64,000 nucleotides of DNA from Escherichia coli O157:H7 (GTDB lineage: Bacteria; Pseudomonadota; Gammaproteobacteria; Enterobacterales; Enterobacteriaceae). Made by a program: the position numbers. Shown here piece by piece: positions 36,001 through 39,000 of the stretch; position 1 is the first letter of the stretch, and each line of letters opens with the position of its first letter. Location of the stretch: NCBI RefSeq assembly GCF_013167455.1, contig NZ_CP038328.1; one strand, given 5' to 3'.

Positions 36001-39000
36001 GATTCGTACCTCGCAGAGGTCTTTCCTCGTTACCAGTGCCGTCACTATGACGGTGATACAGATGACGATCAGGGCGATTAACATCGCCTTTTGCTGCTTC
36101 ATAGCCTGCTTCTCCTTGCCTTTCGGCGCGTAAGAGGCTAACCTACATGTGTCTAGCATGAAATTGGCCTCAGATTAATGTTAGGCGTCTTGCAGGACGC
36201 GTAATGTTAACTGGGGCTTTTCTCTGTCTACCTTACGGTGGCATGCCCGAGGCAGACAGCCTCAAGCACCCGCAGCAATTCTACTTAACTCTCGCTTTAC
36301 CGCAAACCGTTTTTACCCGATATGGGAATTCCCATATCGTAATGAATTCAGTTCCCTAGTCGATCCATCAAAAACACAACCAGGCAGTAAACGCCCACAA
36401 CAGCAATAACAGCCAGCGCACCTTCCATTGCCAGTGAAATATCATCCGACATATTCCCTCCTTTGGTGTGAATCCCGGCGAACGTTTTTACCCCCACCGA
36501 CAAATAACATATACTAAAAAATCAATAGCTATAGCAACGCCTGTAATTGCAAAGGCTTCAGGCCAGATCATTGGCGCACCTCCTGCGGCGGTTCTGGTAG
36601 CGGCATCCAGTCGGTTACATTGCGGCTCTGTGTTTCGAAAAATTCATCACCATTACGGACTACATCAAAAAACTCACCGTCTCGATATTGCGCATAAAGA
36701 ACGAATGCGCCATCACATAAAATAATTACGTGCTGACCATCATCCGGCATTCGCTCACTACAGCTTATCCAACCATCCGGAGTTACCGGATAGTTGGTTG
36801 ACGTTTCCGAGATTTCCCGAAAATTATTGGTTGACGAACCCTTATTTTCCCGAAAGTTTCCAGCCTGAAGCATGGCGGCGCGGTGACACCAGATAATCCA
36901 GCCAAGCGCCATATCCCATACCATGTAATCTCTATCGCCATTTTTTGCTCTGCGGCGATCTACAGATTCTCCGAAACGCTTCTCCATAAATAATTCATAG
37001 GCTGCTCGTTCATCCGATACTGCTGCCAGTGATGCCAGCGCAATCCGTGCCAGCTCTTCCGCTTCTTCTGCTGGAAGCACAACGTTGCTACCCGGTCCGT
37101 ATGTTTCGCGCCAATGCTGGATTGTCAGCAGTCGATCTTTGGTAATAGTGGTCATAGCTATTTCACCTTAATCTCAACATTTCGCAGCTTTAGCTCTACT
37201 GGCATGTCTGACTTTCCTGTTAATGCTAATGCGAGATTTTCTGGAGTAATGAGAGCAGTTATTGTTTTCCCCATCGCCAGACGAATAATCATTCGTATTT
37301 CGCGATCGTCACATGCTCCTGGTCGAACAATTGATATTTGTCCGTTCATCTCACTCTCCTTTGATGCGAATGCCAGCGACGCGTAATGCGTGTTCTAGGT
37401 CAATCAGGTAAAGCCAACTGCCATTTTCTTTAGGTATCATGACATGTCGCTCATCTGCATTTATCGGGTGTCCATATCGAAGGTCGTAGCGAGTCGGTAA
37501 TTGAACTTCCCGCGCTTCCAGTTCAGCAATACGCTTGCTCCCATCAGAGATAACGCCTTCGTAATACTCACGCTGCTCGTTGAGTTGTGATTTTGCTTCT
37601 TCCAGTCCATCCAGCAAATCAGCGATAATATCCGCTTCCCGATGACGGATGTGACGCTTAAACGCAGCAAGAGCCGCATCACAATCCCGTTCAGCATTTG
37701 GGCTGTCCGGGGTAGCCTGATACCACGCCAGCGTCGATTGATAGTTTTGTGCTGCCTCACGCAGTGCCTGATAGTCAATCTTGCCCACTGGCTGCCTCCT
37801 TTGCCGGGATTTCTAACTTTTGAGTGGTTGTATCAAATTCAAACAACTTAACCACGTCATCAAACAGGACATAATCACCATCAGGATCTTCAGTCATATC
37901 AGCGCCACAATCCTGACCGCACGAGTCGCAACCTCCCATATCAAGCTCGTATCGCTTCAGGTTCGCGATATTTGATAAATTCAGCGCCAGTATAGCCAGA
38001 TCATTAACCTCGTCTGCGATATACCCTGCACCATGTCCATACATTTCAATGCGGGATATGATTTCTTCTACACGTTGTTTTGTGATCGTCATTTTTCTCT
38101 TCACTCCGATATACAAGGATTACTACACCCCCTCTGCTGATTGCGCGAGCTGGATCCCCTGGTTCCATGCCGTCAATTCCGAAGGCTTCGAAAAATGCAT
38201 CCATTGCCTTCTGGCGTTGCTCCTGCTTACGGCGTTTATTCCATTTTTTCATGAACAACAGTGACAGCCATCGTCCGCTGCAGAACATAATGTAGAAATA
38301 ACCAAGAAGTGCCAGGCCGGCGTTCAGGGCCATATCAATCGTTATCGCCGGGTCAATATTCACTGCCCACCTCCTGAAAAATCACCGCATGGCCCGGTTT
38401 CTCCTCCAGTGCCAGCTCAGCCCCTGCACCTGCCGACTGCTGCCAGCCTTTCAGCATGTAAACCGCATCCACGCAACGGAGCATTGCCATGCAAATATCC
38501 ATGTAGTGTGGCTGAGTCAGCCCGTCCGGAAGTACTGCCGGGTTTAAAACGGTATGCCCTTCCCGTTTCAGCACCTCTTCCGTTTTGTGAAATGCCTCGC
38601 GGTTAAAATTTTCATATCCCGTCATCGGACCGGCGATATAAACCCTCACCCTCACTCCTGAACCCTCCTGTCGAAATAAACGTAGTTATTCACTGCGCCC
38701 AACTTCATCCCAAACTTTTCGGCAATTTCCCGTCGGGGTACACCACGCTGATGCAGTTGCCACGCCAGCTCAATATCACGCTGTGAACATTTGGCTGACT
38801 GGTGATAATCACCCCGTAACATCATGCTGATACCCAGTTCCCGCGCTTTCGTCCTGACGGCTGACTCACTACGGCCAATCAGATAACCGATGCTTTCGAC
38901 TCTCATCGTTCCCGCACACTGCCGGAGTATCAGGATTTCAGCCCAGCGCCACTTCTTCCAGCCACTCACCGCTGCTGCTCTCTGGTGGCGGTAATATCCC

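Follow-up and report, generated by a model that had tools for sequence, protein, structure and literature searches.

In the nin (early-right) region of a lambdoid prophage of Escherichia coli O157:H7, a 34-codon open reading frame (ORF), here called ORF34, lies directly before the promoter of the hok toxin locus. This raises the question of whether the small hydrophobic peptide encoded beside a known type I toxin is a second toxin, a small membrane regulator or the product of a chance ORF. We analysed ORF34 in a stretch of 64,000 nucleotides (nt) of contig NZ_CP038328.1 (NCBI RefSeq assembly GCF_013167455.1), hereafter the window, which is the counterpart of prophage Sp6 of strain Sakai; the 1.35 kb surrounding ORF34 is 100% identical to many O157:H7 chromosomes. 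A first-pass annotation of the window, made from the sequence alone, had proposed a type I toxin or a small membrane regulator. We find that ORF34 exists, is conserved in frame under protein-level constraint and, according to published data, is occupied by ribosomes in growing lysogens. We favour, with somewhat better than even confidence, the reading that ORF34 encodes a lysogen-expressed, single-pass inner-membrane micro-protein that serves as an accessory of the prophage.

Coding capacity and translation of ORF34

ORF34 occupies positions 36348 to 36452 on the minus strand (ATG at 36452-36450, TGA at 36350-36348) and comprises 34 codons plus a stop, encoding MSDDISLAMEGALAVIAVVGVYCLVVFLMDRLGN; the window contains a single copy. 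The first-pass annotation had read the peptide sequence exactly and had located the ORF, which lies on the minus strand, but the lower bound of its interval, 36358, drops the last 10 nt of the gene. Its description of a strong Shine-Dalgarno (SD) sequence at good spacing was borne out. The AGGAGG core (36457-36462, minus strand) ends 4 nt before the ATG, the minus-strand sequence from SD to start (36462-36450) is AGGAGGGAATATG, and the GGAGG of this SD is kept in all alleles seen. Sites of the form AGGAGG-N3-8-ATG occur six times on the two strands of the window, compared with 2.5 expected; three of them open ORFs of 108 to 255 codons that are unannotated here and are probably phage genes, one opens ORF34, one opens a 27-codon ORF immediately upstream (ORF27) and one is trivial. 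In the centroid mRNA fold the SD and AUG of ORF34 are unpaired, and the fold is unremarkable (z=-1.6). The peptide has an acidic N terminus, MSDDISLAMEG, followed by one hydrophobic stretch of about 19 residues, and it ends in DRLGN, 5 to 6 residues past the helix. On the Kyte-Doolittle scale its most hydrophobic 19-residue window reaches 2.72, within the range of transmembrane (TM) segments.

As a candidate gene, ORF34 is already known. The first-pass annotation had placed it below the length cutoff of an ORF track, as though it were unannotated; however, exactly this coding sequence is called by the NCBI Prokaryotic Genome Annotation Pipeline (PGAP) in strain TW14359 as the hypothetical protein WP_001278450.1, and in Sakai, in prophage Sp6, it bears the name ECs_5710 (YP_009502606.1). 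It also forms the core of XECs145, one of 465 novel intergenic genes supported by ribosome profiling (RIBOseq) in the study of Hücker et al. 2017 (PMC5597208, S2 Table); identical sequence and an Sp6-type context identify XECs145 and WP_001278450.1 as the same gene as ORF34. Since it is present both in RefSeq and in a published RIBOseq catalogue, ORF34 as a candidate gene adds nothing new.

The published values show clear ribosome occupancy in growing cells. In LB medium at 37 °C, XECs145 gave 79.1 reads per kilobase per million (RPKM) of RNA and a footprint RPKM of 346.1, with a ribosome coverage value (RCV) of 4.35 and a coverage of 0.99; in the brain heart infusion (BHI) control the corresponding values were 121.3, 150.1, 1.14 and 0.84, and under BHI stress they were 73.3, 1.1, 0.01 and 0.37 (PMC5597208). 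Ribosome profiling had been proposed as a check by the first-pass annotation, with lack of translation as the refuting outcome, and ORF34 passed this check on the published LB values. By comparison, ECs1517, a same-strand gene of 63 amino acids (aa) annotated about 700 nt upstream, gave RNA and footprint values of 25.1 and 49.0 in LB (PMC5597208), so XECs145 had approximately 3-fold more RNA and 7-fold more footprints. The RNA-seq and RIBOseq signals come from uninduced Sakai cultures and point to expression from a repressed prophage, with the caveat that read assignment to XECs145 is uncertain because the sequence occurs several times per genome. PredictProtein places the XECs145 product in the inner membrane with one TM segment (PMC5597208). 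ORF34 therefore has the attributes by which bacterial small membrane proteins are recognised, namely no more than 50 aa, a start codon preceded by an SD, evidence that it is translated and one predicted TM segment.

Neither the XECs145 paper nor RefSeq assigns ORF34 to a family, proposes a function for it or connects it with hok. A full-text literature search for the accession numbers, ECs_5710 and XECs145 returned no match, and the Hfq-CLIP data of Tree et al. 2014 contain nothing at the ORF34 locus. The text of a preprint on Hok diversity and that of the hokW paper do not mention the upstream ORF, and the main text of Fozo et al. 2010 (PMC2887945) does not mention the peptide.

A family of two forms in lambdoid prophages

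While cataloguing what follows genes of the ORF27 family, we met in locus L152 a 34-codon ORF that ends at the same position as ORF34 and is approximately 47% identical to it. This was the first sighting of a sister form, which we call type B (L152:2362-2451, L200:3058-3147 and L201:3060-3149), ORF34 being a member of type A. Type B starts at a conserved GTG behind GGAGG; an in-frame ATG further upstream is present in some alleles and lost in L197-199. The product has 29 codons, with the consensus (M)LVLKCALAIAAVMAIYCLAVVLMDRLSD, and the length is exactly 29 codons in 121 of 125 copies from viral contigs. Type A corresponds to type B with an in-frame insertion of five codons (SDDIS) after the start, and the stop position is common to both. 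The two forms share the pattern L-x4-ALA-x2-AV-x3-YCLV-x2-LMD-x-L and have about 50% amino acid identity.

Substitutions within each form were compared between the true and the shifted reading frames. Type A gave 10 synonymous (S) and 11 nonsynonymous (N) substitutions and an omega of 0.45 (p=0.056), with omega >1 in the shifted frames; nucleotides 55-80 of ORF34 were left out of this test because the pattern used in the first viral scan had constrained them (ascertainment bias). Codons 10-29 of type B gave S=15, N=19 and an omega of 0.44 (p=0.016), with 1.0 and 1.4 in the shifted frames, and the pooled set (S=25, N=30) gave an omega of 0.45 with p=0.0026, the expected synonymous fraction being 0.27. 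All replacements in the family were conservative (V/I/A/L/M, D/E, R/H and S/T), and in one ORF34 allele the ATG has become GTG, still a valid start. The substitution pattern fits purifying selection at the protein level. Taken together, the frame, length, stop, in-frame indel, SD and footprints indicate that ORF34 is a real protein-coding gene under moderate constraint.

Both forms are widespread in E. coli. ORF34 DNA was found at 1,466 places in 673 of 5,426 complete genomes, with at most five copies per genome, and its occurrences carry the label "hypothetical protein" throughout. Type B was present, at a coverage of at least 80%, in at least 1,668 of the 5,426 genomes, usually as one copy. 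RefSeq had no feature beneath type B in any of the 30 matches listed. In four sequenced Escherichia phages (Tritos, Evi, mEp460_ev081 and HannyBb) type B is either unannotated or covered by ORFs called on the opposite strand, two such ORFs having been called in its place in HannyBb. Annotation of the family is thus inconsistent, since type B, the much commoner sister, is missed by PGAP and by phage annotators or called on the wrong strand.

Relatives of ORF34 were sought by degenerate DNA patterns and by protein searches. ORF34 was absent from the INPHARED phage records, and ORF34, type B and ORF27 gave nothing meaningful against Pfam, NCBIfam, PHROGs and PADLOC; the best library matches (SecE, ATP synthase subunit c, Cmr5 and POT) were discarded as chance hydrophobic similarity. 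An exhaustive phmmer search of 1.84 billion representatives yielded copies of ORF34 that were near-identical, frameshifted or damaged and nothing else; type B was not among them, probably since that form is seldom called by gene finders. A scan of species representatives gave a single match, inside a long Spirochaetia ORF, which we attributed to chance. Because the pattern of that scan demanded ATGGAY, type B alleles that are known (…ACGGAT and …ATGGAG) would escape it, and absence of the family outside E. coli is thus unproven by the scan. The Rac and Qin prophages of K-12 lack a homologue of the family, and the named small proteins encoded there show no resemblance to it, which is probably why surveys of small proteins in K-12 never named the family. 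As far as seen, ORF34 belongs to a small orphan family confined to lambdoid prophages of E. coli.

Upstream of type B we observed a promoter-like element. The hexamer CATATT is invariant in 45 distinct type B upstream sequences and is preceded, at a fixed spacing of 17 nt, by TTGAAT, TTGAAG or TTGCTG in most of them. It ends approximately 30 nt before the SD, which would give a leader of about 20 to 25 nt if transcription starts just past it. On this arrangement, TTGNNN-17-CATATT is a candidate promoter of the family's own. The type A leader has only about 20 nt in common with that of type B; it lacks the family promoter, and no sigma-70-like promoter was detected on the minus strand in the window scan. 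Separately, a box of the form GT(G/A)(T/C)ACG(T/C)C(A/C)AA lies just before the SD in all type B variants (e.g., L200:3028-3052) and is recognisable in type A as CACACCAAA. This box is more conserved than the surrounding leader and could be a regulatory site or a site of pairing with a small RNA (sRNA).

The type A gene sits in a cassette. The 11-nt sequence GGGTAAAAACG occurs twice in the 64 kb (0.04 copies expected; none of 100 shuffles reached two), and the copies, 175 bp apart, flank the SD, ORF34 and a palindrome described below. On the minus strand, the upstream copy (36483-36493) spans the ORF27 stop and forms the left border of the cassette, and the downstream copy (36308-36318) forms its right border and abuts the hok -35 region. 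In 933W a single copy of GGGTAAAAACG lies at an uninterrupted junction of ORF27 and hok with no insert. There the ORF27 homologue is diverged, of the same length and reads MTWPEAFANVGTVMAVVLVVYSICRWR; the hok -35 follows directly on its stop, as ...TAAAAACGGTTTGCGG. Because they are flanked by the 11-bp direct repeat and the junction is uninterrupted in 933W, the SD, ORF34 and palindrome constitute a 175-bp insert relative to 933W. The repeat has the look of a duplicated target site or of a joint left by recombination at short homology. The structure of the family in two forms, the promoter-like element of type B, the systematic lack of annotation, the position at the hok promoter and the wider family of ORF27 (see below) are apparently unrecorded in the literature searched.

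Position at the hok promoter and possible role of the peptide

The first-pass annotation had placed the ORF about 200 bp from hok, a fair estimate: from the ORF34 stop the mok ATG (36159) is 188 nt away and the hok ATG (36102) 245 nt away. A full-length match to Rfam model RF01794 (114 bits) marks the leader of the hok mRNA and the sok region (36097-36271, minus strand), and mok (36159-35947), with hok embedded in it (36102-35947; named hokD by PGAP), occupies 35947-36159 on the same strand. From sequence reading and the start of the Rfam model, we place a putative hok promoter at 36278-36305 (minus strand), with TTGCGG at 36305-36300, a 16-nt spacer and TAGAAT at 36283-36278, ending 6 nt before the leader. 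This promoter fell under the threshold of the promoter scan, in which the homologous TTGGCG-17-TAGAAT of L200 was flagged. The RF01794 match begins 77 nt past the ORF34 stop; ORF34 is therefore outside the classical hok/mok/sok unit, lying neither within the hok mRNA nor within Sok RNA.

Between the ORF34 stop and the hok promoter lies a perfect 22-nt palindrome, CGATATGGGAATTCCCATATCG (36318-36339), 12 nt upstream of the hok -35, with an EcoRI site at its centre. Its RNA would fold into a 9-bp hairpin; a U-tract is lacking on both strands. The palindrome segment was found at 2,055 places compared with 1,466 for ORF34 and is therefore linked to the sequence upstream of hok no less than to ORF34; it is absent from type B loci and from the 933W hok locus. 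Candidate roles for it are an operator, an RNA hairpin or a recombination scar.

The association of the family with hok is frequent but separable in both directions. About 95% of type A copies and 96 of 115 type B copies lie immediately upstream of a hok promoter; type B is found in Qin-like prophages just upstream of hokD-rem-ydfU (L200) and in Rac-like prophages that have no hok (L201). The 19 type B copies without hok keep the promoter-like element, the SD and an intact ORF. In one lineage, made up of L003 and three viral contigs, ORF34 is kept and hok replaced by other genes. Conversely, 933W has hokW without ORF34, and in the PPompW phages only the last 7 nt of ORF34 and the palindrome remain in front of hok.

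These observations are consistent with the favoured reading, in which the ORF34 family gene would be a small module of its own placed directly before the hok promoter in the nin region. Type B would carry its own promoter-like element, a short leader, the GGAGG SD, a GTG start and 29 residues. Type A would have gained five codons (SDDIS) and lost the family promoter, and would sit as the 175-bp cassette between ORF27 and the hok promoter. Because the family promoter is lost, type A is probably transcribed, together with ORF27, by read-through from the operon of the upstream DUF551 gene and translated from its own consensus SD. The product is predicted to insert into the inner membrane as one helix, would not be lethal at its native level and may bind or perturb some membrane component as a moron-like accessory. 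On this evidence ORF34 would be neither part of the classical hok/mok/sok unit nor a classical type I toxin, and "small membrane regulator" appears to be a better guess than type I toxin.

Several points weigh against the favoured reading. The recurrence of a tight fit against the hok -35, in 83-95% of copies, might reflect a functional connection with hok. The RIBOseq figures could be inflated or blurred by multi-copy mapping of reads, and the published call of XECs145 has 54 codons from an upstream non-ATG start, unlike the ATG start used here, although PGAP and the position of the SD favour the 34-codon form. The constraint is only moderate (omega of about 0.45) and comes from few, closely related sequences, and the pairwise dN/dS of 0.31 between types A and B adds nothing; we dropped it as evidence because one shifted-frame control gave the same value. 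Finally, no minus-strand sigma-70-like promoter was found for type A, yet its published RNA exceeds that of ECs1517; possible explanations for this excess are multi-copy mapping, a promoter that escaped recognition or differential mRNA stability, perhaps through protection of the 3' end by the palindrome hairpin.

The best-surviving alternative takes the placement at face value. ORF34 would then be an accessory of hok acting in cis, through promoter occlusion, 5'-extended hok transcripts or the palindrome as an insulator, or else its peptide would modulate Hok in the membrane. We consider this doubtful, but it is more interesting than a toxin role. The ORF abuts the hok promoter in two diverged subfamilies, ending 43 nt (type A) or approximately 9 nt (type B) before the hok -35. 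The type B stop is followed by TTGGCG-17-TAGAAT with no terminator between, so type B transcripts should enter hok, and in type A the palindrome between ORF34 and the hok promoter stays with hok when ORF34 is lost. Such a role in cis would need an open frame at most, whereas it is the amino acid sequence that is conserved, and the hok-less copies have retained a complete gene. Moreover, the well-studied hok loci of R1 and of 933W (hokW; PMC8621323) work without ORF34, and the linkage may reflect a single mosaic block that has recombined little.

A weaker alternative is that the family represents novel membrane toxins of type I, or of a similar type, whose synthesis is repressed by an sRNA, antisense or trans-acting, that escaped detection. 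The first-pass annotation had suggested a type I toxin on the strength of closeness to hok, and of the marks that could be tested only small size and hydrophobicity applied: at 34 aa, with a hydropathy of 2.72 and one TM segment, the peptide is within the usual range of under about 60 aa with a TM helix. It is also prophage-borne beside a known type I toxin, type B forms an independent unit of promoter and SD, and K-12, lacking the family, would never have been a host in which it was screened. The search for an antisense RNA that the first-pass annotation had recommended yielded no conserved promoter or terminator on the opposite strand and no Rfam family over ORF34. In the window, the opposite strand has no terminator, and no promoter downstream of ORF34 reads antisense through it; plus-strand promoter-like sites at 36428-36455 and 36487-36515 fire away from the coding region. 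No antitoxin sRNA gene was thus found near ORF34 in this local search, and a trans-encoded RNA elsewhere is possible. In L200, a promoter-like TTAACT-18-TAAAAT on the opposite strand would drive antisense transcripts into the ORF's 3' end, but we rejected it as a feature of the family, as its -10 varies across alleles (TTTTATA, TTTCATA, TTTCACA or TTACATA) and it is absent in type A. A terminator-like hairpin inside ORF34 (36397-36381) has a weak 6-bp stem in coding sequence and was treated as chance.

Nor does ORF34 behave as a toxin whose translation is kept off during growth. The SD and AUG are unpaired in an unremarkable fold, and occupancy in growing cells is high (RCV of 4.35 and a footprint RPKM of 346 in LB), the opposite of a silenced toxin. 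Up to five copies are tolerated per genome, and there is no match to Hok/Gef or to any toxin model. With neither type A nor type B matching HOK_GEF (PF01848) in Pfam at E<=10, we rejected the reading of ORF34 as a degenerate mini-Hok. These results make a type I toxin improbable, and a toxin label based on proximity should not be placed on ORF34.

That ORF34 is a chance ORF in young, near-identical prophage DNA, with footprints that reflect pervasive translation behind a strong SD, is highly improbable and largely refuted already. In its favour, the family is narrow with only near-identical sequences in an exhaustive protein search, nucleotide variability within ORF34 (20 of 79 sites) is no lower than in the flanks, and truncated and frameshifted alleles exist. 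Against it, two subfamilies at about 50% amino acid identity share the frame, stop position and hydrophobic pattern, the synonymous excess appears in the true frame only, and conservation extends to the SD and the start, with an intact ORF in 97% of type B copies.

Comparison with known systems also sets ORF34 apart from toxins. Like Hok/Gef proteins of hok/mok/sok units, it is a small peptide with an N-terminal TM helix, encoded on the same strand and at the same spot in the nin region. Unlike these proteins of about 50 aa, it lacks a PF01848 match, a Cys-containing periplasmic C-terminal domain, mok-type coupling, a long folded leader and a Sok-like RNA. ZorO, TisB, IbsC, ShoB and DinQ (PMC2887945) resemble the family (29-34 residues) in consisting almost wholly of one hydrophobic helix, and zorO shares with it an absence from K-12. 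ORF34 differs from these toxins in having no detectable antisense or divergent sRNA gene, an accessible SD and high occupancy during growth.

Two other classes offer parallels. AcrZ, MgtS, MgrB, PmrR and SgrT exemplify the small regulatory inner-membrane proteins found by ribosome profiling. ORF34 shares with this class a length of 50 residues or fewer, a single TM segment, a strong SD, a history of being missed by classical methods and detection by footprints; unlike its members, it is prophage-encoded and strain-variable, without a K-12 orthologue or known partner, and a regulatory role for it is conjectural. Phage morons, such as lambda bor and lom, are independent promoter-gene units that lie between phage genes and are expressed in the lysogen. 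The promoter-like element and self-contained small gene of type B in the nin region are moron-like, as are the direct-repeat-flanked 175-bp insert of type A and its expression in uninduced lysogens. In contrast to morons, no terminator of its own was found for the family, the stretch between the ORF and the hok promoter containing no intrinsic terminator; the type A promoter is lost and the cassette is far smaller.

A bolder version of these ideas, which we regard as a long shot, is that the family is a conserved but overlooked third gene of prophage hok loci, a mostly unannotated membrane peptide of 29-34 residues carried by at least a third of E. coli genomes, that would tune Hok in the membrane or time hok through its own promoter, which would fire into that of hok, or else that it is a new toxin family with an antitoxin other than a cis-antisense RNA. 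In practical terms, deletions and reporters used to dissect hok/sok loci (e.g., hokW in Sp5, PMC8621323) may include or disrupt a translated membrane-peptide gene. The gains are otherwise modest; they concern the catalogue of bacterial small proteins and bring no new mechanism.

ORF27 and other features of the nin region

The left neighbour of the ORF34 cassette, ORF27 (36488-36571, minus strand), encodes MIWPEAFAITGVAIAIDFLVYVICRWG in 27 codons and is not annotated by PGAP. Its ATG overlaps the stop codon of the DUF551 gene (36568-37155, minus strand), its upstream neighbour in the operon, as ATGA, and an AGGAGG lies 7 nt upstream of the ATG (36579-36584, minus strand). A scan for the motif MxWPEAFA recovered 41 distinct peptides, including those of L002 (933W), L127 (POCJ13) and approximately 40 IMG/VR contigs. 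In nearly all of them the motif is followed by 15 to 20 hydrophobic residues and the ORF ends at 23 to 30 codons; this holds even for metagenomic phage contigs that are very diverged. Translational coupling is suggested by the position of the ATG, which in 23 of the 41 shares an ATGA with the stop of a long upstream ORF and in most of the others abuts that stop. Roughly half of these upstream genes resemble DUF551, and the remainder are unrelated. The family is not in Pfam or PHROGs, and most of its members are missing from a collection of 15 billion proteins. It is a second, broader family of peptides of 23-30 residues, apparently coupled to the preceding gene, beside that of ORF34. Within its lineage ORF27 has an uninformative omega of 0.85, and in the POCJ13 copy codon 3 has changed from TGG to TAG. 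The idea that ORF34 is a diverged duplicate of ORF27 was unsupported in Smith-Waterman comparisons against shuffles (p=0.04-0.19).

The minus-strand gene order of the nin region is replication protein P, DUF1627, DUF4406, DUF4752, an Ea22-like gene, DUF551, hok, a 92-aa protein, DUF968 and RusA. At 35857-35938 (minus strand) we observed a weak Rfam match to isrK, an sRNA of Salmonella prophages (27.7 bits, E=9e-4, gathering score 50). The match overlaps the 3' end of hok and its intrinsic terminator (stem at 35878-35861) and is probably mere terminator similarity. Downstream of DUF968, at approximately 32907-34437 of the window (L001 5764-7294), the identical record of TW14359 has a RusA gene annotated as truncated ("missing C-terminus") with a partial DUF6645 gene ("missing N-terminus") fused to it; this arrangement suggests a deletion or recombination joint in the prophage.

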